The notes under the pieces were generated by a model. It made no database searches and was not told the origin of the DNA. It was given only the letters and a program-made list of their open reading frames with translations. Below, piece by piece: positions 2,128 to 62,596 of a stretch of DNA of 64,000 nucleotides. The stretch is from Spirochaetes bacterium ADurb.Bin133 (lineage in GTDB: Bacteria > Spirochaetota > GWE2-31-10 > MWDO01): the NCBI GenBank assembly GCA_002070605.1, contig MWDO01000002.1, positions 40,723 to 104,722 of the forward strand, in the 5' to 3' direction. Position numbers and translations under genes: made by a program. Positions within the stretch are counted from its first letter, which is position 1; the number at the start of each line of letters is the position of its first letter.

Positions 2128-3165
2128 TTAAGTTAAGCCTTTAAATTCTTTATCCCAAGCTTTGACCGCTCTCTTTACCATCTTCTTCTTTAGTTTATCA
2201 GGCGCAAAACTGGCGTTAAATCCGTTTATTATTACTTTTAAAATGTCGTCTAAACTGAAGCCCAATTTACTATATAAATTCCAATATTCGTCTAAGATAT
2301 TAATATTAAAAAAAGCCGGATCGTCCGTATTTAACGTAACCATTATCCCATTATCAAAAAAATACTTTATCGGATGCTCTTCAATTTTTTGCACGAACCT
2401 CTTAGTAAAAACGTTGCTTGTAGGACACAATTCCAACGGAATTTTATTGTCCGCCAGATATTTTACCAATTCTTTATCCTCGACAGCCGCTATGCCGTGT
2501 CCGATTCTTTCAGCGTCAAGTAAATTTAAAGCGTCCCATACGGAGTCGGGACCGTCGTCCTCTCCGGCGTGAGCCACTCTACGAAACCCGTACGCTTTCG
2601 CTTTTTGAAATACTTCTTGAAATTCCTTTGCGGGACCATTTAGCTCGCTTCCGCCAAGCCCTATCCCTATAATATTCTCCCTGTCGTTATACTCAATAAC
2701 TTTATCCAGATTTTTCATCGCATTCTCTTTACCAAATGTTCTCGAAACGTCGACGATGATCTTAGCAATTAATCTGTTTTTCTTTTTCATCTTTTTTATT
2801 TTTTTAATAAATTGCTCGATAATGTCCTCAAACTGCCAACCGTTATTTAAAAACATGGATGGGGAAAAATAGAGTTCGGTATATACGATACCGTTTGACA
2901 ACATATAATCTTTTATACAGTCAAACAACTCGCTAAAATCGCTTATCTCTTCGTAAGAATTTTGAACTTTTAAAAACGCGTCGATAAATTCATCCAGACT
3001 ATTATAACTAAAAAATTTATCAACATTTTTCATATCTTTAAATTCTGGTTCTTTTCTTGACAAAATTTTAGATACGGTCTTTCTATCGACTACGGCTTCC
3101 GAATGAAGATGAATTTCGGATTTTGGTATTTTTTTTAATTTCTTATAAAAAAGCTCTTTTTCCAT
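2128..3165 (-). CDS. add: adenosine deaminase family protein
   Basis: HLHSE metal site, HAGE motif, SLNTDDPAFF motif, 345 aa. Confidence 0.85.
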   Translation of the reverse strand: MEKELFYKKLKKIPKSEIHLHSEAVVDRKTVSKILSRKEPEFKDMKNVDKFFSYNSLDEFIDAFLKVQNSYEEISDFSELFDCIKDYMLSNGIVYTELYFSPSMFLNNGWQFEDIIEQFIKKIKKMKKKNRLIAKIIVDVSRTFGKENAMKNLDKVIEYNDRENIIGIGLGGSELNGPAKEFQEVFQKAKAYGFRRVAHAGEDDGPDSVWDALNLLDAERIGHGIAAVEDKELVKYLADNKIPLELCPTSNVFTKRFVQKIEEHPIKYFFDNGIMVTLNTDDPAFFNINILDEYWNLYSKLGFSLDDILKVIINGFNASFAPDKLKKKMVKRAVKAWDKEFKGLT

Positions 3166-3266
3166 CTATTAATTCCTGATATAGTTTCTTATCGGTTGCG
3201 CAAATTATAAGATTTAATTAAGTAGGAATATTTTTTAATAAATATCCCTTTTTGTAATAAAAAAGC

Positions 3267-3363
3267 TCTCCGTCGGTTTTTTTGGGCGTGGAAATTCGAC
3301 GCATATGAAACAAATATCTTTAAATAGTAATTTTTTTTATTTCCCAAAAAACCGACGGATTAC
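3267..3363. mobile_element. MITE-like repeat copy 1 (short variant, core degenerate, orientation B)
   Basis: CCGTCGGTTTTTTTGGG ... CCCAAAAAACCGACGG inverted arms around core GACGCATATGAAACAAATAT; flanked by near-identical ATAAAAAAGC / ATAAAAAAAGC direct repeats. Confidence 0.6.
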
Positions 3364-3398
3364 ATAAAAAAAGCGTCAAAAAATGACGCTTTTTTTAT
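3363..3398. terminator. rho-independent terminator downstream of rny (bidirectional form)
   Basis: AGCGTCA-aaaaa-TGACGCT hairpin with A-run 5' and T-run 3'. Confidence 0.65.
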
Positions 3399-3399
3399 T

Positions 3400-4932
3400 C
3401 TATCTTGCATACTCCACATACCTGGATTCCCTTACTACGGTAACTTTAATCTTACCGGGGTATCTCAGTTCCGATTCTATTCTCTTAGCGACGTTCTTTG
3501 CAAGCCCCTCCGCTCCGACGTCGCTAGTCGAAGCGCTATTAAGAACTACTCTCAACTCTCTACCCGCTTGTATAGCGTAAGCCTTCTCAACCCCTTCGTA
3601 GCTTTCGGCTATCTGCTCAAGATTTTCCAATCTTTTAATGTAGCTGTCTATACTCTCTCTTCTCGCCCCCGGTCTGCTTGCGCTAATAGCGTCCGCCGCT
3701 TGAACGATCATCGATTCTAAACAACTCGGTTCCACATCTCCATGGTGACTGACAATTGCGTTCAATATCTTGTCAGATTCCCCCATCTTCTTAGCCATTT
3801 CGTACCCGGCTTCTGTGTGACTACCGTCTCCATCTGAAGCGGCGCCTTTTCCTATATCGTGCAATAATCCGCCTCTTTTTGCAATGTTTACATCGCAACC
3901 TAATTCTGCCGCTAGAGCTCCAGCTATTTTTGCAACCTCTACAGAATGTTGTAAAACATTCTGTCCATAGCTGGTTCTAAAATGCAACCTACCTAAGTTA
4001 ATAATCCCCTCGGTAGATATACCCGGAATACCAATACTTAAAACTGCTTTTTCTCCCTCTTCATAAATCATCTCGTTGACTTCATTGATAACTTTGTTTA
4101 TAACCTCTTCGATTCTAGCCGGGTGTATTCTACCGTCTGCAATCAATCTGGTTAAAGCTATCTTTGCAATCTCTCTTCGCACGGGATCAAAGCTGGAAAT
4201 TACAACCGCTTCAGGCGTATCGTCGATAATAATATCTACTCCGATCAATGTCTCAAGCGTTCGTATGTTCCTTCCTTCTCGTCCAATAATTCTCCCTTTC
4301 ATCTCGTCGTTCGGTAAAGAAACGCTGGTTGTCGTTACGTCGGAAGTTACCTCCGACGCTATTCTTTGAATTGTCGTTACTAAGATCTCTCGAGCCTTTT
4401 TGTTAGCGGTAATATTTGCTTCGTCTTCAATCTTATTAATTAAAATTTGAGCTTCTTGTTTTGCTTTTTCTTCAAGCTCTTTAATCAATAAATTTTTAGC
4501 CTGCTCCGAAGTCATTCCGGATATTCTCTCTAAGTCTTTTAACCACCTATTTTGTAGTTTAACAACTTCGTCGAGTTTATCCGTTAATTCCCTATCTTTG
4601 TCGCCAACGCTTCGCTCTCTTTTCTCTAAATCTCCTACTTTCCTGTCTAATTGCTCCTCTTTTTGTATAATACGCTTTTCTTGTCTTTGTAACTCAACTC
4701 TTCTCTCTTTCGTCTCTTTTTCAAAATTATTGCGCTCTTGAATCAAAAAAGTTTTTGCTTCCAAAAGCAACTCTTTTTTCTGAGAATCAGCTTCAAGTTT
4801 TGCTTCCCTTAATATAATATCAGCTCTATTTTCGGCAGAATTTAGCTTGTTTTTTGCAATCAACATTCTTACAAAAAAACCAACCGCGCCGCCTGAGAGG
4901 AGGGATATAGTCCCAATAATAAAATACCACAT
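3400..4932 (-). CDS. rny: ribonuclease Y
   Basis: N-terminal TM helix, coiled-coil, KH domain (GREGRNIRTLE), HD domain (HHGD), 510 aa. Confidence 0.92.
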   Translation of the reverse strand: MWYFIIGTISLLSGGAVGFFVRMLIAKNKLNSAENRADIILREAKLEADSQKKELLLEAKTFLIQERNNFEKETKERRVELQRQEKRIIQKEEQLDRKVGDLEKRERSVGDKDRELTDKLDEVVKLQNRWLKDLERISGMTSEQAKNLLIKELEEKAKQEAQILINKIEDEANITANKKAREILVTTIQRIASEVTSDVTTTSVSLPNDEMKGRIIGREGRNIRTLETLIGVDIIIDDTPEAVVISSFDPVRREIAKIALTRLIADGRIHPARIEEVINKVINEVNEMIYEEGEKAVLSIGIPGISTEGIINLGRLHFRTSYGQNVLQHSVEVAKIAGALAAELGCDVNIAKRGGLLHDIGKGAASDGDGSHTEAGYEMAKKMGESDKILNAIVSHHGDVEPSCLESMIVQAADAISASRPGARRESIDSYIKRLENLEQIAESYEGVEKAYAIQAGRELRVVLNSASTSDVGAEGLAKNVAKRIESELRYPGKIKVTVVRESRYVEYAR

Positions 4933-5018
4933 CCTATCCTCCAGAAATATATTAATATTTCCATGTTAATTCAATTCTAAATTATTGTCAAGTAAATTTG
5001 TAAATATTTGAGACGCCC

Positions 5019-5078
5019 GCGGTTTCTTGAAGGAAAAAATTGACACATATGGAACAAATATTTTTAATTAGTAAATTA
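5019..5078 (+). promoter_or_regulatory. partial repeat copy 2 carrying candidate promoter TTGACA(5040-5045)-N17-TTTAAT(5063-5068) for ORF 5168
   Basis: core TTGACACATATGGAACAAATATTTTTAAT; the same arrangement is duplicated upstream of paralog at 60984-61499. Confidence 0.5.
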
Positions 5079-5167
5079 TTTATTATTTATTAAAAATTAT
5101 CCGAGTTTTTGTAAAGAGTTTTCTACTTTTAGTTGTTATATATATAAAAGAAAAAGGAGAAAATTTT

Positions 5168-5683
5168 ATGAAAAACAAAAAACATTTATTTCACTTTATA
5201 GTATCTGAATCTATGAATACCAATGTTATAGATTTTTTGCTAAAGGAGTTCAAAATTAATACGTTTAGCAAGTTATTTGAAACTATGTTTCGTCTCGTTA
5301 ACAAAAAAATCCCAAAAATGAAGAGAATAGTCGGAAATCATCGCTCCGAATACGCCGTTATAGATAGCTCCGACGATAAAAGAGTGGATAAATATCTTAG
5401 AATCAGCGAAGCGGACTATCTTCAAATAAAAAGATGGCATTCTTTGTATAACGAATTCGGTATGGCTTCGACGGTTCGCGATATTATCCTGTTTTTCTAT
5501 AACGGCGTTGTAAAATACGGGCTAGAAGGATTTCTTGAGCTTGTTGGCAAGAAATTGAAGGTTGATAAATTGAAAAACGACTTTTTGGATAAAATGACAC
5601 AACTGTTAAATATAACCGCTCGGAAACAGCTATTACACACGCTCGTAATCGAAAATTATCCCAAATACGTTTACTGTACTTAA
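5168..5683 (+). CDS. hypothetical protein, paralog family (171 aa), copy A
   Basis: complete ORF with AAGGAG SD; about 90% aa identity to ORF 60984-61499 on the other strand; no recognisable motif. Confidence 0.7.
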   Translation: MKNKKHLFHFIVSESMNTNVIDFLLKEFKINTFSKLFETMFRLVNKKIPKMKRIVGNHRSEYAVIDSSDDKRVDKYLRISEADYLQIKRWHSLYNEFGMASTVRDIILFFYNGVVKYGLEGFLELVGKKLKVDKLKNDFLDKMTQLLNITARKQLLHTLVIENYPKYVYCT

Positions 5684-6181
5684 AACTATTTGTCATTTTA
5701 TAAAAAACCGGCGAGGCGCCAAATTTATTCATAAAAACATTGACTTTAAATCTATTTTGCAATACAAGTATGCTGGATAGATGTTATGAAATTTTATAAA
5801 TTATTTTTATTTCTGATAATTCTTTTATTCGCTTTCCAACCCGCGTTTGTTAAAGAGAGCGCTTTTATGGATTTTTTCAAGATAAATATCGAGAATGAAT
5901 TAAGAGAGTCTCCTTTAAATAACTTTAATATTTTGGCAAATATAAGAATAACTAAATTATTAAAAATGTTTTTCTTATTTTTGTCTTCGTCTATAAAACA
6001 TATTATTACGGCTATTTCCTTTATTATTGTTTCAAAAATATTTTTTAATAAGATCTTAATACTCTATTCATTATTTTTGAGATCTCCCCCTATTATTTAA
6101 TATAAAAATATTTCATTATTTTCTTTTCGCTAACTTTAATCGATTTTTTTATTATTTGTTTTAAAAAAGGGGGAATTTATA

Positions 6182-6979: not shown

Positions 6980-7369
6980 TTAAAAGCGCGCTCTTGGAGG
7001 AGATCTTGAGTAAAGACGGAAAGATATGTCGAAAAAGTAATTGAGACCGATAAATATAATATTATTATATCTAAAACAAGATTGTTTAATTAAAGAAAAA
7101 ATACATGGGGGAACAAATAATCTTTGTTCGGCTCTTTTTTTTATAAAATAATTAGTCGAGAAATTTTCATTTTGTTTTATATGCGATAAAAAATATATCG
7201 ATTTTGATATAGATATAAATTCGTTAGGATATTGATATTTTTTAGTCCATTTCGGATATTTACCGTCTTCAAAAAGAGTAAAAATAAGAACAAAGATTAT
7301 TAACAAAAAAGGAAGAGCAAAATTAGATTTTATTGAAAGATTTTGTCTATTTAGGGCTTTAAATTTCAT
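6980..7369 (-). CDS. hypothetical membrane protein (129 aa)
   Basis: ORF with one TM segment; low complexity; uncertain. Confidence 0.3.
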   Translation of the reverse strand: MKFKALNRQNLSIKSNFALPFLLIIFVLIFTLFEDGKYPKWTKKYQYPNEFISISKSIYFLSHIKQNENFSTNYFIKKRAEQRLFVPPCIFSLIKQSCFRYNNIIFIGLNYFFDISFRLYSRSPPRARF

Positions 7370-7434
7370 TATCGCTATTTACGTAAAATTATTTTATACG
7401 AGCAAAATATTATAAAAAATATTAATAGTCAAGG

Positions 7435-7544
7435 GTAATCCGTCAGTTTTTTGAGGAATAAAAAATATTTGTTCCATATGTGTCATTTTTTTTGAGATAG
7501 AGTCGCGTTACCTATTTTCTTACCCCAAAAAACTGACGGGACAC
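7435..7544. mobile_element. MITE-like repeat copy 3 (long variant, orientation A)
   Basis: GTAATCCGTCAGTTTTTTGAGG ... CCCCAAAAAACTGACGGGACAC; core AAATATTTGTTCCATATGTGTCA; flanked by 8-bp direct repeat AGTCAAGG (7427-7434 and 7545-7552). Confidence 0.7.
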
Positions 7545-7587
7545 AGTCAAGGTTTTATAAAAAATAATGTTAAAATGTTGTATCAAA

Positions 7588-7977
7588 TTACTCCATTACC
7601 GTAATCTTAAAGTACTTAGGCGAAATCGCTTCTAAAATTTTAAAGTTGCCGTATTGCCAATGATATTCTTTTGCGCATAGGAGGTTCAGAAAATATACTT
7701 CGTTGAATTTTAAAGATCGGGTTTTAAGTATCCAGTAAATAAATGATTTCAGTCCGTTGGAATTAATAAAGCGAAGTTTGTAAACGTCTATAACTATATT
7801 TTTAATATTATATTTTAGGGCTTTGTCGTGAATATTGTCAAAAAAAGGTATCAAAACTTCGTCGGGATGAGCGTCTTCAATCGAGCCTTCAACCGATATT
7901 TTAATCGAGTCGTCTTCGCAAACTGTCGAAATTGTATATTTAGGAAATTTAATATCTTCAATTACAAAATTTTCCAT
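7588..7977 (-). CDS. DUF1987/SiaC-like (STAS-like partner-switch fold) protein, tentative
   Basis: MENxxIE start, IxxEGSIED and IVIDVYKLRFINSNGLKSF pattern reminiscent of DUF1987; 129 aa; weak by-eye call. Confidence 0.35.
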   Translation of the reverse strand: MENFVIEDIKFPKYTISTVCEDDSIKISVEGSIEDAHPDEVLIPFFDNIHDKALKYNIKNIVIDVYKLRFINSNGLKSFIYWILKTRSLKFNEVYFLNLLCAKEYHWQYGNFKILEAISPKYFKITVME

Positions 7978-7994
7978 AATTTTTTCTTATTCGT

Positions 7995-10178
7995 TTACCT
8001 TGATATAATTTTTGTAAAAACTCTACCGTTTTCGTCGTATATTTCAAATTTGATCGTTCGAATATCGTTTTTATATTCGGCTGATTCTTCGTCGTTAAAA
8101 TAAACCTCATAGTCCCCGTCGGATTTTTCTATAAAAATATTTAGATTAATAAATTTGCCTTTTTGAAAATCGTACGTTTCGCCGTCGTCGTCGTAATACA
8201 TATACGACGCTCTATCCGTTACAAAAGCAACCGCTAATAATTCGGTAATTTTTTTCTCTCCGACGTAATTTTGCGGACGCGTCAATACTACTATAGAATT
8301 TTCTTTAACGAAGGTTAACGTTTCGTCAAGTTCGCAATTAATAAAGTAACTTCCGGGATTATATATAGAAACGTCTCTGTCGTCGAAATTTTTTACCTTC
8401 CAACAGAGCCACTTTACATCCGGCAACGTTACGTATCTCCCTCCAGAATTTGGCGTATATATCGGCGCCGCCATAATCGATTCGCCGAACATAAATTGAT
8501 CCTCGATATTCTTTAGTATAGGATCGTCAAAAACAAAAGATACCGGAAGTATCAAACATCTAGAGTTGATAATTGATTTTAAATATTCCGAATAGATATA
8601 CGGTATCAATGCGTATCGAAATTTAATAATATCTCTGATAATGTCCGTAGTCGCGCTATCGAACGCCCAAGGTTCTTGATTTCTAGTTCCTAGAGCGGAG
8701 TGATTTCTAAATAACGGAGAAAAAATTCCAAGTTGCGACCACCTGATAACGAGTTCGGCGCTTGAGTTACACCCAAACCCGCCGATATCGGCCCCCGTAT
8801 AAAAAAAACCGCACATATTAAGAGATTGAAGCATCCTGATATTGACTATGATATGCTCCCACCAGCTTTGATTGTCCCCCATCCATATCGAAGTAAAGCG
8901 GTGAGCGCCGATATAACTGCTTCTTGATAATAAAAGGTATCTTTTATTTCCTAAAAGTTTTTTTAGTCCGTCGGAAGTAGCTAAAGCCATAAAAAATCCA
9001 TATAGATTATGTATTTTATCGTGGCAGATAACTTTCCCGTCGTCTAAATTGTGAAAAAAACTTTGATAATCTTCTCTTTTATTGGACAAACCGTTAACGG
9101 CGTCTTTAATCGAAAAAAAATCAAACCCGGGGTCTTTTTTCTCTTTGATTTTATCGACAAGAGAATAAAAATTTTTTAAACCGTCCGGAGTAAAGAATAT
9201 CGCGGGTTCGTTCATATCGTTCCAAAAAGCGCATATCCCCGACTTTACCATCTCCTCATATAATCCTCCCCACCACTCTCTGACTTTTGAGTTGGCAAAG
9301 TCGGGATAACATGTCGCTCCGGGCCAAACCGTTCCTACAAAATCTAAGCCGTTTTCTTTTTTACAGAAATATCCTTTGCTTTTTCCTTCTTCATAAACTT
9401 CATACCCGTCTTCGATTTTTACCCCCGGATCGATTATAGGAGCTATTTTAAATCCTTTTTCAAGCATTTTAGCTATAAAATCTTCAAAGTCGGGAAATTT
9501 ATTCTCGTCGACGGTAAAAACCTTATAATCCTTCATATAATCTATATCAAGATAGATAACGTCGCATGGTATGTCAAGCGATCTAAATTGATTGCCGATA
9601 GATTCTACCGTTTCCCTATTGGGATAACTCCACCTGCACTGTTGATAACCAAAAGCCCATTTTGGCGGTATATACGGAGTTCCGACAAGACTAAGAAAAG
9701 AGCCGATAATATCAATTTTGTTTTTTGATCTGAATATGTATAAATCAATATCCGTAGAGCTTACTTCGATAGAGAGTAAATTTGTATCCTTAAAGCCGGC
9801 GTCGATTTTTATTTCGGAAGGAGAGTCGATAAAAACCCCGACCGTTTCGTCGCCGTCGATAATAAAGAACGGATGCGAACCGTAGAGCGCTTCTTTTTCA
9901 GGAGTATGCAAAAAATCGTCGCTGGAATAGCACCTATATATCTTTCCTCGTTTATTTAACGAACCGAGATTTTCGCCGAGACCGTATATCGAGTCTCCGG
10001 CGGAGAGCGTTTTGTTGAAAACGACTTTATCAAGTCCGACGTTTTTATCAAAAAGGTAAATATCTTTAACCTCTTTAAAATTTATCTGATCGACGTCGAC
10101 AACTACCGCCCCTGTTTTGAAAGGGTCGCCAAATCTGAAAAGAGTAATGTTTTTAAAAATTTCATATTTTTTGATCAT
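7995..10178 (-). CDS. glycoside hydrolase family 31 alpha-glucosidase
   Basis: WNDMNEP catalytic nucleophile motif, GADIGGF, 727 aa. Confidence 0.88.
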   Translation of the reverse strand: MIKKYEIFKNITLFRFGDPFKTGAVVVDVDQINFKEVKDIYLFDKNVGLDKVVFNKTLSAGDSIYGLGENLGSLNKRGKIYRCYSSDDFLHTPEKEALYGSHPFFIIDGDETVGVFIDSPSEIKIDAGFKDTNLLSIEVSSTDIDLYIFRSKNKIDIIGSFLSLVGTPYIPPKWAFGYQQCRWSYPNRETVESIGNQFRSLDIPCDVIYLDIDYMKDYKVFTVDENKFPDFEDFIAKMLEKGFKIAPIIDPGVKIEDGYEVYEEGKSKGYFCKKENGLDFVGTVWPGATCYPDFANSKVREWWGGLYEEMVKSGICAFWNDMNEPAIFFTPDGLKNFYSLVDKIKEKKDPGFDFFSIKDAVNGLSNKREDYQSFFHNLDDGKVICHDKIHNLYGFFMALATSDGLKKLLGNKRYLLLSRSSYIGAHRFTSIWMGDNQSWWEHIIVNIRMLQSLNMCGFFYTGADIGGFGCNSSAELVIRWSQLGIFSPLFRNHSALGTRNQEPWAFDSATTDIIRDIIKFRYALIPYIYSEYLKSIINSRCLILPVSFVFDDPILKNIEDQFMFGESIMAAPIYTPNSGGRYVTLPDVKWLCWKVKNFDDRDVSIYNPGSYFINCELDETLTFVKENSIVVLTRPQNYVGEKKITELLAVAFVTDRASYMYYDDDGETYDFQKGKFINLNIFIEKSDGDYEVYFNDEESAEYKNDIRTIKFEIYDENGRVFTKIISR

Positions 10179-10191
10179 ATATTATCCTTTT

Positions 10192-10902
10192 TTAAGAGAT
10201 ATTTATTTTACTTTTACCGGAAATATATCCGTCGTAGCCGTTTTTTCTCAATATACACGCGGGACAAGCTCCGCACCCTTTGCCGTACGGCCGCATAGTC
10301 TCGACTCCGTTGTAACAAGTCATGGTTTTTAATAGAACGACGTCGAGACATCCCAGCTCTTCGGCTAACCGGAATTCATCCGACTTTGTAAGACGCATAA
10401 GGGGGGTATGTATCTCTAAGTTTTTACCCTCAAAATCGGTAGAGAGATTTAACGCTACCTGACACGCTTTGATAAAGACGTCCCTGCAATCGGCGTATCC
10501 CGAATAGTCCGTTTCGCATACCCCTATTACGAGATTCTGCGCGCCTATTGTCGACGCGTACCCCGCCGCTACGGTTAAAAAAAGCATATTTCTATAAGGA
10601 ACAAAACTTGACGGGAGGTTCGCGTCTAATTTGTGCTTTTCATTTACGTCGTCTTTTCCTATAAAAAGATTGGATATCAATATATCCTTTATAAAAGAGA
10701 GGTCGACGATCTTATGGCTTAAACTCAAGTCTAAACATATATTCTTTATTACGTCGAGTTCGATTTTGTGTTTTTGGTTGTAATCAAAAGATATAACGTC
10801 TACCTGTTTGAAACGTCGTAGAGCCCAATAAAGCGACACCGTAGAATCCATGCCTCCGCTTGCCAATACAAGAGCGCTCTCGTTTGCAAGAAGATTTATC
10901 AT
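10192..10902 (-). CDS. queC: 7-cyano-7-deazaguanine synthase
   Basis: LASGGMDSTV PP-loop, C-terminal CGACPAC zinc motif, 236 aa. Confidence 0.9.
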   Translation of the reverse strand: MINLLANESALVLASGGMDSTVSLYWALRRFKQVDVISFDYNQKHKIELDVIKNICLDLSLSHKIVDLSFIKDILISNLFIGKDDVNEKHKLDANLPSSFVPYRNMLFLTVAAGYASTIGAQNLVIGVCETDYSGYADCRDVFIKACQVALNLSTDFEGKNLEIHTPLMRLTKSDEFRLAEELGCLDVVLLKTMTCYNGVETMRPYGKGCGACPACILRKNGYDGYISGKSKINIS

Positions 10903-39124: not shown

Positions 39125-39269
39125 AAGTATCTCCTAAATATTAGATTTTGATAAAAGATTTTTGTTTATAATATAATAAAAAATAAATCTAATAAAAGTA
39201 AAATTTATTTATTTTTACCGAATTTAAAATTTAATATAAATTTCTTTACAATATGGAGTTTAAAAAAAT

Positions 39270-39313
39270 TGTTTTATATGCGTCAATTTTCCTCTCCTAA
39301 AAAACCGGCGGGT
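39270..39313. repeat. partial MITE-like repeat copy 8 (core + one arm)
   Basis: TTTATATGCGTCAATTTTCCTCTCCTAAAAAACCGGCGGG matches core plus short-variant arm. Confidence 0.5.
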
Positions 39314-39393
39314 TATTTTTGATTTTCAATATTTTCTTGACTTATTTTCTAAAATATATTTTATTATTTATTCGATTATAAAAGGAATAAAAA

Positions 39394-40416
39394 GTGGCAA
39401 ATAAAACAGACAACATAGTAATTCCGAAAGGATACGATCCGTTATTGAGTATTAAAGAAACGGAAGAAGCGATTAAAGAGATAAAAGATTTTTTTGAAAA
39501 AAGTTTGGCGGAAAGGTTAAATCTTACTCGGGTTTCAGCCCCATTATTCGTTCTACCTGAAACAGGGTTAAACGACAATTTAAACGGAACAGAACGACCG
39601 GTTTCTTTCGACGTAAAAGATATTGACGGTAAATCGGTTGAAATTGTCCAGTCTTTGGCTAAGTGGAAAAGAATGGCTCTAAAAAAATACAATTTCGATA
39701 AAAACGAAGGCATATATGCAGATATGAACGCAATAAGACGCGACGAAGATCTCGATAATCTTCATTCGATTTACGTCGATCAATGGGATTGGGAAAAGAT
39801 TATTTCAAAAGAGGAAAGAAATATAGAAACTTTAAAATCTATAGTAAAAACTATATATAAAGTTTTTAAGGATACCGAAGAATTCCTATCTTCAAAATAT
39901 AAAGCGTTAAAAACTTATCTTCCGGACGAAATATTTTTTATCACTACGCAAGAGTTGGAAAATAGATATCCTAAATTAACTCCTAAAGAGAGAGAGAATG
40001 AAATCGCGAAGAAATTTGGAGCCGTGTTTTTAATGAAAATAGGAGATAAACTTAACTCCGGTATCCGACACGACGGAAGAGCGCCCGATTACGACGATTG
40101 GGAGCTAAACGGCGATATTATATTTTGGTATCCGGTTTTAGAAAAGGCGTTTGAAGTTTCTTCTATGGGTATAAGAGTAGACGAATTTTCTATTGTGAAA
40201 CAATTAGAAAAAGCCAAATGCGAGGAGAGAATACATCTCCCTTTTCATAAAGATATAATAAATCGCGTTTTACCGTACACAATCGGGGGCGGTATAGGTC
40301 AATCTAGAATCTGTATGTTTTTTCTTAATAAAGCTCATATCGGAGAAGTTCAAAGTTCGGTTTGGTCGGAAGAGACCGTCGAATATTGTCATAAAAATAA
40401 TATAAATTTATTATAA
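39394..40416 (+). CDS. asnA: aspartate--ammonia ligase
   Basis: AsnA-type class II synthetase-like fold, 340 aa, GTG start, conserved SAPLFV...QSRICMFFL regions. Confidence 0.88.
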
Positions 40417-40430
40417 TCGGAGAAGATAAA

Positions 40431-41819
40431 ATGGAGTCAATAAAAAGATTATTCATAGACCCGTCTAAGTTTTACAATAAAAATATTGAAGTTTCCGGTT
40501 GGATAAGAACGATAAGAGATTCAAAGTCGTTTGGTTTTATAGAGATTAATGACGGCTCGTTTTTTAAAAATCTTCAAATTGTAGCGGACGAGAAAGATAC
40601 GTCTAATTATCAAGAAGTATTAAAACTATCTATTGGTTCCGCCATAAGCGTTCAGGGAATATTATTGGAAACCCCTAACGCAAAGCAGCCGTTTGAACTT
40701 AGAGCCAGTTCAATAACAATCGAAGGTTATTCGGCAAACGACTATCCTTTGCAAAAGAAAAAACACTCTTTTGAATTTCTAAGAACAATAGCTCATTTGC
40801 GACCGAGAACAAATACCTTCTCCGCGGTTTTTAGAATTCGATCGGTAGCCTCCTACGCAATACATAAATTTTTTCAAGATAGAGGCTTTGTTTACGTTCA
40901 AACTCCGATAATTACAACCAGCGATTGCGAAGGCGCGGGTCAGATGTTCAGAGTAACTACGCTGGATCTTAATAACGTTCCCAAAAACAAAAATTCAACA
41001 GTGGATTATTCCAAAGATTTTTTTGGTAAAGAGACCAGTTTGACTGTCAGCGGTCAATTAGCCGGCGAAGCTTACGCAATGGCGTTTAAAAATATATATA
41101 CGTTCGGTCCAACTTTTAGAGCGGAAAACTCAAATACGGCAAGACATGCGGCTGAATTTTGGATGATTGAACCTGAAATCGCCTTTGCAGATCTTAACGA
41201 CGATATGGCGCTCGCCGAGGATATGATAAAGTATATAATTAATTATGTTTTAGAAAATTGTCCCGAGGAAATGAAATTTTTCAACGATTTTATAGATAAT
41301 TCGGTTTTAGATAGATTAAACAATATCGTTAGTTCTAAATTCGGCGTTATAACCTACACAGAAGCCGTAGACCTGCTAAAAAAAGAGTCTGCTACTTTTG
41401 AATATCCCGTAGAATGGGGTATAGACCTTCAAACGGAGCATGAGAAATATTTGACGGAAAAGATTTTCAAAAAACCTCTTTTTGTTATTAATTATCCAAA
41501 AGAGATCAAGGCGTTTTATATGCGTCAAAACGACGACGGTAAAACGGTAGCCGCTATGGATCTGTTAGTCCCCGGCGTCGGAGAAATTATAGGGGGCAGT
41601 CAAAGAGAAGAAAGAATTGATATTCTTGAAAAAAAATTATCAGATTTTGATCTAAAGAAAGAAGATTACTGGTGGTATTTGGACTTGAGAAAATACGGCG
41701 GAGTCAAACATTGCGGATTTGGTTTAGGATTTGAAAGAATGATAATGTATCTTACCGGTATGACTAACATTAGAGACGTTATTTCTTTTCCGCGAACTAC
41801 TAAACAAGCTGATTTTTAA
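40431..41819 (+). CDS. asnS: asparagine--tRNA ligase
   Basis: OB anticodon domain then class II motifs ([21 protein letters not shown]); 462 aa. Confidence 0.9.
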
Positions 41820-53432: not shown

Positions 53433-53448
53433 ATATAATAGCGCTGCT

Positions 53449-53550
53449 CCGTCGGTTTTTTGGGGAATAAAAAATATTTGTTCCATATGCGTCGAATTTT
53501 TTTGAAACAGGCTCGCGTTGTCTATTTCTTTACCCCAAAAAACTGACGAG
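53449..53550. mobile_element. MITE-like repeat copy 4 (long variant, orientation A)
   Basis: CCGTCGGTTTTTTGGGG ... CCCCAAAAAACTGACGAG; core AAATATTTGTTCCATATGCGTCG. Confidence 0.65.
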
Positions 53551-53656
53551 CTACTTAAAATAAATTATTTAATCTTGACATAAATTGTATAAAAATGGTA
53601 TAATTCTTTTCTTTAATGGAAATAACAATTAAGTTTATAAAATATAGGAGATAAAT

Positions 53657-58770: not shown

Positions 58771-58773
58771 AGT

Positions 58774-58870
58774 CCCCTGTCAGTTTTTTTGGATGGGGAA
58801 ATGACACATATGGAACAAATATTTTTAATTATTAAATTATTTTTTATTCCCCAAAAAACCGGCGGGATAC
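58774..58870. mobile_element. MITE-like repeat copy 5 (short variant, orientation B) with candidate outward promoter ATGACA-N17-TTTAAT (58801-58829)
   Basis: CCCCTGTCAGTTTTTTTGGATGGGG ... CCCCAAAAAACCGGCGGG; core TGACACATATGGAACAAATATTTTTAAT; ORF 58881 begins 11 nt after the element. Confidence 0.65.
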
Positions 58871-60951: not shown

Positions 60952-60983
60952 AGCCGTATCCTGTCGATTTCTTGCGAAAAAAA

Positions 60984-61499
60984 TTACGCGCAGTAAACGT
61001 ATCTGGGATAATTTTCGATTACGAGGGCGTATAACAGCTGTTTTCGAGCGGTTATATTCAACAGTTGTGTCATTTTACCCAAAAAGTCGTTTTTCAACTT
61101 ATCAATCCTTAATTTCTTGCCAACAAGCTCAAGAAATCCTTCCAACCCGTGTTTTGTAACGCCGTTATAAAAAAACAGTATAATATCTCGAACCGTCGAA
61201 GCCATACCGAATTCGTTATAAAAATAATGCCATCTTTTAAGTTGTATATAGTCCGCTTCGCTGATCCTAAGGTATTTATCCAACCTTTTATCGTCGGAGC
61301 TATCTATAACGGAGTATTCGGAGCGATGATTTCCTATTATTCTTTTCATTTTTGGCATTTTTTTGTTAATAAGGCGAAACATCGTTTCAAACAGTTTACT
61401 GAACGTATTAATTTTGAACTCTTTTAGTAAGAAATCTATGACGTTACTATTCATAGATTCAGACACTATAAAGTGAAATAAATGTTTTTTGTTTTTCAT
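60984..61499 (-). CDS. hypothetical protein, paralog family (171 aa), copy B
   Basis: about 90% aa identity to ORF 5168-5683 including identical MKNKKHLFHFIVSESMN N-terminus; same SD and leader. Confidence 0.7.
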   Translation of the reverse strand: MKNKKHLFHFIVSESMNSNVIDFLLKEFKINTFSKLFETMFRLINKKMPKMKRIIGNHRSEYSVIDSSDDKRLDKYLRISEADYIQLKRWHYFYNEFGMASTVRDIILFFYNGVTKHGLEGFLELVGKKLRIDKLKNDFLGKMTQLLNITARKQLLYALVIENYPRYVYCA

Positions 61500-61559
61500 A
61501 AAATTTTCTCCTTTTTCTTTTATATATATAACAACTAAAAGTAGAAAATTCTTTACAAA

Positions 61560-61650
61560 AACTCGGATAATTTTTTAGAAAATAACAAATATTTTGCTAG
61601 TTAAAACTATTTGTTCCATATGTGTCAATTTCTTTCCTCAAGAAACCTAC
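61560..61650 (-). promoter_or_regulatory. partial repeat copy 6 with candidate promoter for ORF 60984-61499 (TTGACA at 61623-61628, minus strand)
   Basis: reverse complement reads GAAATTGACACATATGGAACAAATAGTTTTAAC then a 100-nt leader almost identical to 5069-5167. Confidence 0.5.
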
Positions 61651-61754
61651 GGAACGCAAATCAAAAACAGAAATTAACTTTAATTTGAAATTAAGATATG
61701 CATTAAATATCCATATATAATAAGCGTATTTATAACGAGGGTAATTATCGTTTG

Positions 61755-62336
61755 TTAGAGTTTATCTTTTTCGCTAAAAACTATAGCCGTATAAGTTTCA
61801 ATAGACAAGTTGTTTTTTTTCCACTCCTGCGGATCTATCATAGCTTTCATACATAAATTAGAAAAAAAATCGTCAAAGTTTGGAAGTTGTTCCCATACCT
61901 GAGGTAAGAAAGTGGCAGAGTTCATTCCTTTTTTAATAATTACTCCGTCTTTATATGGAACAATTAAATTATATAACTCTTTATAATTTTCGTACTCAAC
62001 TTTTTTAGGCGGAGTTAAAATACTAATTTCAATACAAACGTCATTAATTTCTTCCGGGGACAACGGATTAAATCTATAATCGGAATAAGCGGCGTTATAG
62101 GCGTTTTCAATAACCGTTTGATAGATAGGAAATTCTGGAGCGATGTATCCGATGCAACCGCGGAGTTTGCCGTTTTTATGTAAAGTAACAAAACCTCCTC
62201 CATTACTTTTTAAATCTTTTGAAAGATCTTCAATCTCTTTTTTAGAGAGCCATATCTTTCGAGACTTAGTTTTAATTGTTTCTCTAGCTAAATGCAATAA
62301 ATATTTTTTACTTTCATTTGAAATAGTATTGTTCAT
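61755..62336 (-). CDS. AMMECR1 domain protein
   Basis: LRGCIGY motif and PYKDG region; 193 aa. Confidence 0.75.
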   Translation of the reverse strand: MNNTISNESKKYLLHLARETIKTKSRKIWLSKKEIEDLSKDLKSNGGGFVTLHKNGKLRGCIGYIAPEFPIYQTVIENAYNAAYSDYRFNPLSPEEINDVCIEISILTPPKKVEYENYKELYNLIVPYKDGVIIKKGMNSATFLPQVWEQLPNFDDFFSNLCMKAMIDPQEWKKNNLSIETYTAIVFSEKDKL

Positions 62337-62394
62337 AAATTTATCCTTAAGAGCGAAGATGTATCTATTATACCATATTTAACGACATATTTAT

Positions 62395-62438
62395 CTTTAT
62401 AGTTTAAATGTTTCACGTGAAACATTTAAACTATAAAG
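62395..62438. repeat. perfect 44-bp palindrome centred on CACGTG (arms extend to about 29 bp if the MITE insertion is removed)
   Basis: CTTTATAGTTTAAATGTTTCAC|GTGAAACATTTAAACTATAAAG read directly. Confidence 0.8.
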
Positions 62439-62547
62439 TGTCCCGTCAGTTTTTTGGGGAATAGAAAATATCTGTTTCATATGTGTCAATTTTTTTGAGA
62501 CAGACTCGCGTTATCCATTTCTTTACCCCAAAAAACTGACGGATTAC
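62439..62547. mobile_element. MITE-like repeat copy 7 (long variant) flanked by 10-bp direct repeat AACTATAAAG
   Basis: TGTCCCGTCAGTTTTTTGGGG ... CCCCAAAAAACTGACGGATTAC; direct repeats at 62429-62438 and 62548-62557. Confidence 0.75.
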
Positions 62548-62567
62548 AACTATAAAGATAAATACTC

Positions 62568-62596
62568 TTGACATTTGGGTAAAAAGAAATTATTAT
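62568..62596 (+). promoter_or_regulatory. sigma70-like promoter for serS TTGACA-N17-TATTAT
   Basis: read directly, 33 nt upstream of the serS ATG. Confidence 0.5.

Follow-up and report, generated by a model that had tools for sequence, protein, structure and literature searches.

Mobile insertion cassettes (MICs) include MIC231 of Bacillus cereus, which is mobilised in trans by the insertion sequence IS231. Other abundant short intergenic repeats, the Correia elements of Neisseria and the repetitive extragenic palindromes and bacterial interspersed mosaic elements (REP/BIME), form hairpins, can carry promoters and lie near terminators. Among transposable elements of the miniature inverted-repeat type (MITEs), MITEAba12 of Acinetobacter is 113 bp long and AT-rich, with 16-bp terminal repeats, a 9-bp duplication and outward sigma-70-like promoters (PMC6382973). 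The insertion sequence ISDge4, of the IS66 family (ISBst12 group), ends in the terminal repeats GTAACTGCTCAGCA / GTGACTACTCAGCA, and its direct repeat measures 8 bp (PMC12898284). Spirochaetes are already known as MITE-rich (PMC11602168). Here we describe a MITE family that is previously undescribed and abundant, at about one copy per 10 kb, in a 64,000-nucleotide stretch (the window) of contig MWDO01000002.1 from Spirochaetes bacterium ADurb.Bin133, an uncultured Spirochaetota bacterium of anaerobic digesters, with particular attention to copy 7, which lies between the divergent genes AMMECR1 and serS.

The family resembles MITEAba12 in being about 110 bp long, non-coding, intergenic and hairpin-forming, in its outward promoter-like motif and 8-9-bp duplication, and in keeping that duplication at only a fraction of its copies, about half as compared with 40% for MITEAba12. 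It differs in that there is no sequence similarity, the MITEAba12 terminal repeats GGCTTTGTTGCA matching ISAba12, in that the parent insertion sequence is identified there and not here, and in its modular interior, which sometimes forms tandem arrays. Likenesses to the Correia and REP/BIME repeats extend to abundance, small size, intergenic location, hairpin formation, possible promoters and proximity to terminators; however, Correia elements duplicate only TA, and REP/BIME units of 20-40 bp are moved by the RAYT tyrosine transposase with no target duplication, whereas here 8-9 bp of varied sequence are duplicated. Both identities are contradicted by these duplications, and REP/BIME also by the lack of any Y1_Tnp match.

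Copy 7 is very probably a MITE whose transposition interrupted an arm of a perfect 58-bp palindrome that was already present. A preliminary description of the window had reported a perfect 44-bp palindrome to the left of copy 7, a direct repeat flanking it, and the restoration of a palindrome of about 58 bp when the element is removed, and had read these features as transposition. All of them are real. Positions 62395-62438 read directly as a perfect 44-bp palindrome with 22-nt arms, CTTTATAGTTTAAATGTTTCAC and GTGAAACATTTAAACTATAAAG, which exceed every other palindrome arm in the window (in 20 Markov-1 random windows the maximum was 0-12 nt, typically 10-12). The string AACTATAAAG occupies both 62429-62438 and 62548-62557. 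The symmetry extends outward, the ATAAATA past the second AACTATAAAG mirroring the TATTTAT left of the 44-bp palindrome. In-silico deletion of 62438-62547 and one 9-mer turns the filled junction CATTTAAACTATAAAGATAAA into CTATAAAGTGTCCC and leaves a 173-bp spacer that holds a perfect 58-bp palindrome with 29-nt arms.

The same description had given the duplication as 10 bp and the element as 109 bp; the duplication stands, and its length and that of the element are best revised. The G at 62438 is most likely the first base of the element, because copy 3 at its right end and L001:6263 at its left end show the same terminus, GTGTCCCGTCAG (loci outside the window carry L numbers); copy 7 would then be 110 bp long and its duplication 9 bp. 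A match at the tenth base is indistinguishable from coincidence. The terminal inverted repeats, of about 22 bp, contain a perfect 17/17 match, and their 17-nt core CCGTCAGTTTTTTGGGG is matched 10 times in the window, where 0.11 matches would be expected. As a single strand, copy 7 folds into a hairpin (-24.4 kcal/mol, z = -6.9) in which the terminal repeats pair to form the stem. No Rfam family was detected in the window at gathering thresholds, and the sole open reading frame (ORF) of at least 40 amino acids that overlaps the element is a 42-codon frame on the minus strand (62446-62574).

Unoccupied sites are present in the closest relatives, whose serS genes are 91-92% identical to that of the window and whose AMMECR1-serS spacers lack the element. 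In L147, from the metagenome-assembled genome (MAG) GCA_017998755.1 (serS 92% identical), a 169-bp spacer lies within one contig and contains an unbroken 56-bp perfect palindrome, ATTTATCTTTATAGCGTTAATGTTTCAC followed by GTGAAACATTAACGCTATAAAGATAAAT. The predicted 173-bp empty spacer aligns to it with 143/173 positions identical and is gap-free at the insertion point. In a second relative (serS 91%; Logan contigs L021, L025 and L026), the flank contigs terminate in exactly reverse-complementary 30-mers that overlap across the centre, the pattern that de Bruijn assembly should leave at a perfect palindrome of 72 bp if k = 31, as we assume for Logan. In the comparison that the preliminary description had proposed, the intact palindrome is therefore found free of the element in two sister lineages, and the transposition reading is supported by these empty orthologous sites together with abutting duplications at half of the full copies. 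In the window's own population the filled site is present at 100% identity in all 16 of the contigs that span the spacer, which come from different digesters and encode identical serS and/or AMMECR1.

The AMMECR1-serS palindrome itself stays perfect in three lineages, at 58 bp in the window, 56 bp in L147 (2395-2450) and 72 bp in L026/L021. Its arms show three substitutions between species, each mirrored in the opposite arm (TTTAAAC vs TTAACGC), so the symmetry itself is maintained. A more distant relative with AMMECR1 76% identical (L030:2044-2257, from JGI 3300002219; also L031 and L032) has a spacer of 214 bp in which a run of N stands where the palindrome centre would be, and about 45 bp of extra sequence (...GGTACGTCTGTATCGCGTTAGAGCGCATTTTTTATTATTCC...), which has TCGCGTTA in common with the type A interior and is possibly a decayed element. 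Many contigs (L006, L007, L010, L017-L019, L021-L029) end within the MITE or after exactly 30 nt of a palindrome arm, and several assemblies of the window's population break within the filled spacer. One further contig (L020:1-132) crosses the palindrome and then returns along its own left flank in reverse complement.

The window holds five full copies of the family, all intergenic and in both orientations, and at least 11 more were recovered elsewhere, some by pattern scanning of metagenomes and others in the flanks of related contigs from digesters and sludge. The scan, which combined core and terminal repeat, had a gap limit of 38, 2 bases under what type A (110 bp) needs, and returned only shorter variants at 12 loci. 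Family members measure 82-157 bp and have core and termini in common. Aligned on their ends, the copies begin with GT(A/G)(A/T/C)(T/C)CCGTCAGTTTTTTGGGG and finish with its complement, giving the terminal repeat consensus GT(A/G)xxCCGTCAGTTTTTTGGGG, and the interior is modular, with one or two CATATG(T/C)GTC(A/G)ATTT cores in direct or inverted order. Two partial copies, at ~4993-5100 and 61560-61660, are parts of larger cassettes described below. Larger members of 134-330 bp (L149:1459-1787, L145:5048-5204, L142:13122-13255) contain tandem or inverted arrays of a ~50-bp unit around the CATATG(T/C)GTCGAATTT core, resembling a minisatellite within a MITE.

To score duplications in 16 full-length copies from the window and related metagenome contigs, element ends were set according to the family consensus. 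Perfect 8-9-bp repeats directly abut both termini in 8 of the 16, and one additional copy has an 8-bp repeat offset by one base. When left and right flanks of different copies were cross-paired as a control, only 1 of 210 pairs reached at least 8 matches. At 75% AT, the analytic chance of an abutting repeat is about 9e-5 for 8/8, 3e-5 for 9/9 and 9e-6 for 10/10, figures that supply the chance estimate which the preliminary description had proposed for its 10- and 8-bp matches. The 8-bp repeat AGTCAAGG that it gave for copy 3 is exact. At copy 1, whose termini are GCTCTCCGTC...GACGGATTAC, a flanking repeat is likewise present, although the imperfect 10/11-mer first given is better read as the perfect 8-mer ATAAAAAA. 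With its small size, terminal repeats of about 22 bp, abutting duplications, dispersed copies and an empty orthologous site, the family of copy 7 has every structural attribute of a prokaryotic MITE.

Strong hairpins were the target in 2 of 9 reconstructed insertions, against 1.25% of control sites; this post hoc comparison in a small sample is suggestive of a preference for hairpins or hairpin flanks, a hint and not a result. For copy 1 the target was the terminator hairpin of RNase Y (3364-3398), in its outer arm, and the duplicated ATAAAAAA forms the first 8 nt of this palindrome. Copy 3 is flanked by two tandem 129-aa ORFs on the minus strand (6980-7369 and 7588-7977), the downstream one of which has a weak, sub-cutoff match to the slr1659 / anti-sigma-antagonist superfamily. 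An 11-nt string, AAAAAAATCTT, is common to the left flank of L140:2977 and the right flank of L145:5048, and GGATC occurs inside two unrelated duplications, ATCGGATC and GGATCAGG; the common flank string and GGATC may reflect chance, a target preference or recombination between copies.

Transposition of copy 7 would have begun with a transposase, supplied in trans, that binds both terminal repeats. Staggered cuts 9 bp apart would then be made in the right arm of the 58-bp palindrome, the element ends would be joined there, and repair of the gaps would give the flanking AACTATAAA duplication; the chemistry would be of DDE type, with a staggered cut. The enzyme may belong to the IS66/ISBst12 family, for which we see a slightly less than even chance, because the termini read GTAA(G/T/C)(C/T)CGTCAG or GTGTCCCGTCAG and the duplications measure 8-9 bp. 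Family copies start with GTAACTCGTCAG, GTAAGCCGTCAG or GTGTCCCGTCAG, and the first 12 terminal bases are 10/12 identical between GTAACTCGTCAG and the ISBst12-group GTAACTGCTCAG. GTAA ends combined with 8-9-bp repeats are the hallmark of IS66 in the ISfinder summary. ISDge4 and its group share with the family termini that begin GTAAC/GTGAC and continue ...TCAG, and direct repeats of 8 bp (8-9 here); they differ in measuring 1.3-3 kb and encoding a transposase of ~450-530 amino acids, whereas the elements here are gene-less units of 82-157 bp and cassettes of ~700 bp without a transposase, and no T6-G4 segment is reported in the terminal repeats of ISDge4.

Several observations weigh against this account. 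Neither the window nor ~300 kb of lineage DNA yielded a transposase gene bounded by matching terminal repeats, so that both mobilisation in trans and the IS66 assignment are drawn from the termini and the duplication length. A terminal-repeat search allowing up to 3 mismatches gave, at the loci examined, nothing but paired MITE ends and a small number of single ends beside ordinary ORFs; a 16-mer terminal-repeat scan of a 596-Gb genome collection, a pattern too short for specificity, gave only single chance matches (L033-L112); and BLAST of one MITE against 72,556 plasmids gave only AT-rich chance matches. Duplications of 8-9(-10) bp are also produced by IS256, IS1 and ISAs1 in the ISfinder family table. 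Among the 16 full copies, the duplication is unrecognisable in 3 and partial or of low complexity in 4. The 16 contigs of the window's own population show no polymorphism for the insertion, the empty sites being those of sister species only. Finally, the promoter-like motif of copy 7 is weak (-10 TTCTAT), and a consensus scan did not flag a promoter there.

Mobilisation by an IS256-, IS1-, ISAs1- or IS4-type DDE enzyme making 8-10-bp staggered cuts, with the rest of the account unchanged, has an appreciable if less than even chance: a duplication length of 8-9 bp cannot separate these families, GTAA stands at the start of only some copies (GTAATCC, GTAACTC and GTAAGCC are found at many ends, and others read GTAT, GTGT or GCGC), and no IS66-type gene was seen in the window or the loci searched. 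The 10/12 terminal match to GTAACTGCTCAG and the IS66 hallmark of GTAA ends with 8-9-bp repeats argue the other way. An ancestral element lost from the sister lineages by precise excision, which would render the empty sites secondary, we regard as very unlikely. Recombination between the copies of the 9-bp duplication would indeed give back the exact palindrome, and 31.3 kb of sister-species DNA in which neither a MITE of the family nor an ORF171 copy was found might reflect loss of the family. However, excision would have to be precise and independent in each lineage, or to have happened in their shared ancestor, the perfect terminal repeats and duplication of copy 7 suggest a recent event, and absence of the whole family from the sister loci is more simply explained by later invasion. 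The element is mobile under either reading.

An element of REP/BIME-like or IS200/IS605 type that a tyrosine (HUH) transposase moves in single-stranded form, with the flanking repeat a by-product of the palindrome, would suit the long hairpin into which copy 7 folds and the proportion of strong-hairpin targets given above. It is nonetheless a remote prospect, since such systems leave no target duplication and half of the copies have 8-9-bp duplications unrelated to one another; no Y1/RAYT gene or Y1_Tnp match was found, ORF171 has no Pfam or NCBIfam match, and the empty site is that of a simple insertion with duplication. More improbable again, to the point of being negligible, is a repeat arising by chance or by local slippage of the palindrome arm beside a 110-bp conserved structured RNA or regulatory module. 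AT-rich DNA does raise the frequency of short matches, and the core has a TTGACA-N17-TTTAAT-like motif that is aimed at a gene start in 3 of the 5 window copies; yet the repeat occurs at 8 copies with a probability of ~1e-5 for each, no Rfam match was found, copies lie in both orientations and some are antisense to 3' ends, and this explanation is refuted by relatives that lack exactly the segment between the duplication copies. Insertion of a MITE with target duplication remains our preferred reading of copy 7.

In addition to the MITEs, the family includes larger units that contain a gene. The window has two ORFs of 171 amino acids (ORF171), each downstream of one of the two partial copies, that are 89% identical and part of a ~650-bp dispersed repeat, and in six units of ~700 bp (two in the window and four elsewhere) the family's terminal repeats bound both ends. 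Duplications flank two of the cassettes outside the window, a perfect 9/9 TCTCTATTA in L149 and an 8/9 match in L136. Judged by these terminal repeats and target duplications, the ORF171 units are transposable cassettes. Each is ordered as terminal repeat, core with TTGACA-N17-TTTAAT directed toward the gene, degenerate internal repeat, ORF171 and terminal repeat. The units have the attributes of MICs, which they resemble in being short, with MITE-type terminal repeats, a non-transposase passenger and target duplications. They differ in insertion sequence family and host, in a lineage-specific passenger with ~100 clusters, and in the degenerate third terminal repeat retained internally.

ORF171 forms ~100 sequence clusters, all from this Spirochaetota lineage, with at least nine paralogues in one MAG. 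It has no sequence match in Pfam, NCBIfam or the PDB and no transposase domain. Its AlphaFold model, of moderate confidence (pLDDT 65.5), is a beta-alpha-alpha unit repeated twice, and the best Foldseek matches, non-significant at E about 1, include VirC2 and TraY, both single-chain proteins of the tandem ribbon-helix-helix type, and AcaB, and do no more than agree with this topology; the predicted fold looks like that of a tandem ribbon-helix-helix protein. A homologue 46% identical in another lineage lies among housekeeping genes and has no recognisable terminal repeats, which favours ORF171 being a captured passenger and not a transposition protein, and the neighbourhoods of two ORF171 homologues contain housekeeping genes and no autonomous element. 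There is a slim chance that the cassette is instead the autonomous form of the family, its protein binding the subterminal CATATG(T/C)GTCAA (motif CATATG(T/C)GTCAATTT). ORF171 would in that case be a new minimal transposition protein or would recruit a nuclease or polymerase of the host, making a conventional DDE transposase unnecessary. Compatible with such a role are the failure to find a transposase, the termini and 9-bp duplications common to cassettes and MITEs, and the confinement of the protein to the lineage.

Element ends also mark a rearrangement. In three related genomes AMMECR1, asnA and aspS are consecutive; in the window asnA and aspS lie at 39394-41819 on the plus strand and AMMECR1 at 61755-62336 on the minus strand. 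Compared with these relatives, the window carries an inversion of ~22.3 kb (~39317-61657) whose junctions are element ends. One junction reads ...CCGGCGGGTTAT directly followed by TTTTGATTT (39305-39325) and the other ...CCTACGGAACGC directly followed by AAATCAAAA (61646-61666). TTTTGATTT is the reverse complement of AAATCAAAA (61658-61666, beside the cassette terminus at 61657), as in a 9-bp duplication that has been split, and the AMMECR1-asnA spacer of the relatives contains a single unbroken TTTTTGATTTTT at the junction site. By comparison of these sequences, the AMMECR1-asnA site is a second, independent insertion validated by an empty site, with a 9-bp duplication. Homologous recombination between two inverted copies and standard intramolecular replicative transposition were both considered as routes to the inversion and fit poorly, the two junction ends being of the same, promoter-side kind.

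At the AMMECR1-serS locus, the palindrome occupies the space between promoter-like sites of the two genes. The insertion would have split it, leaving the perfect 44-bp remnant beside the AMMECR1 promoter and the serS promoter 119 bp farther off, and may have brought in a weak outward promoter-like motif facing AMMECR1. Coordinates of the features discussed are given in Table 1.

Table 1. Features of copy 7, its insertion site, and other members of the family in the window and in related contigs (L numbers).
Feature	Location	Strand	Details
MITE copy 7, type A, 110 bp	62438..62547	+	nhmmer 110.9 bits; no plausible coding capacity
Left terminal inverted repeat, GTGTCCCGTCAGTTTTTTGGGG	62438..62459	+	17-nt core CCGTCAGTTTTTTGGGG (62443-62459) perfectly complementary to 62526-62542
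Right terminal inverted repeat, CCCCAAAAAACTGACGGATTAC	62526..62547	+	
Left target-site duplication, AACTATAAA	62429..62437	.	matching G at 62438 makes an apparent 10-mer
Right target-site duplication, AACTATAAA	62548..62556	.	
Core motif, ATATCTGTTTCATATGTGTCAA	62468..62489	.	block invariant in all copies; minus strand TTGACA-N17-TTCTAT, weak promoter-like, toward AMMECR1
Pre-existing palindrome: left arm (62388-62416), centre CAC/GTG, inner 21 nt of right arm	62388-62437	.	predicted empty site with 29-nt arms; intact orthologues of 56 and 72 bp
Right arm of palindrome, outer 8 nt, GATAAATA	62557-62564	.	shifted 119 bp by the insertion; from sequence and predicted empty site
serS promoter-like site, TTGACA-17-TATTAT	62568..62596	+	11/12 matches; -35 box starts 11 bp past right duplication
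AMMECR1 extended -10-like site, TGGTATAAT	62367..62375	-	putative; kept in relatives
Copy 1, type B, 99 bp	3265..3363	-	8-bp duplication ATAAAAAA, 3257-3264 / 3364-3371
Copy 3, type A	7435..7544	+	8-bp duplication AGTCAAGG, 7427-7434 / 7545-7552
Copy 4, type A	53444..53554	+	no recognisable duplication; adjoins hairpin AGCGCT-N9-AGCGCT
Copy 5, type B	58772..58870	-	no clean duplication
Cassette with ORF171 (5168-5683)	5012..5719	+	family terminal repeats at bounds; contains partial copy 2
Second cassette, ORF171 60984-61499	60956..61657	-	contains partial copy 6; promoter-side terminus is inversion junction
Truncated element end	39241..39316	+	terminus 39305-39316 adjoins TTTTGATTT (39317-39325)
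Further cassette	L136:6050-6820		
Further cassettes	L142:~3000-3720 and ~7570-8250		
Further cassette	L149:~9815-10555		
Duplication, TTGTACTTT	L001:6263		9 bp
Duplication, AAATTATC	L142:9217		8 bp
Duplication, ATCGGATC	L139:6081		8 bp
Duplication, GGATCAGG	L137:4589		8 bp
Duplication, CGATATTTT	L149:7478		9 bp

The family does not change the understanding of MITE function; its value is descriptive, and it offers a starting point for locating the transposase. It helps account for assembly breaks at particular places. With terminal repeats, a duplication and both the occupied and the unoccupied site in evidence, a transposition event is fully documented in a Spirochaetota lineage known only from metagenomes, and the family appears to have reshaped the genome in which it resides, splitting a palindrome, spreading a passenger gene in ~100 variants and standing at both junctions of a 22-kb inversion.

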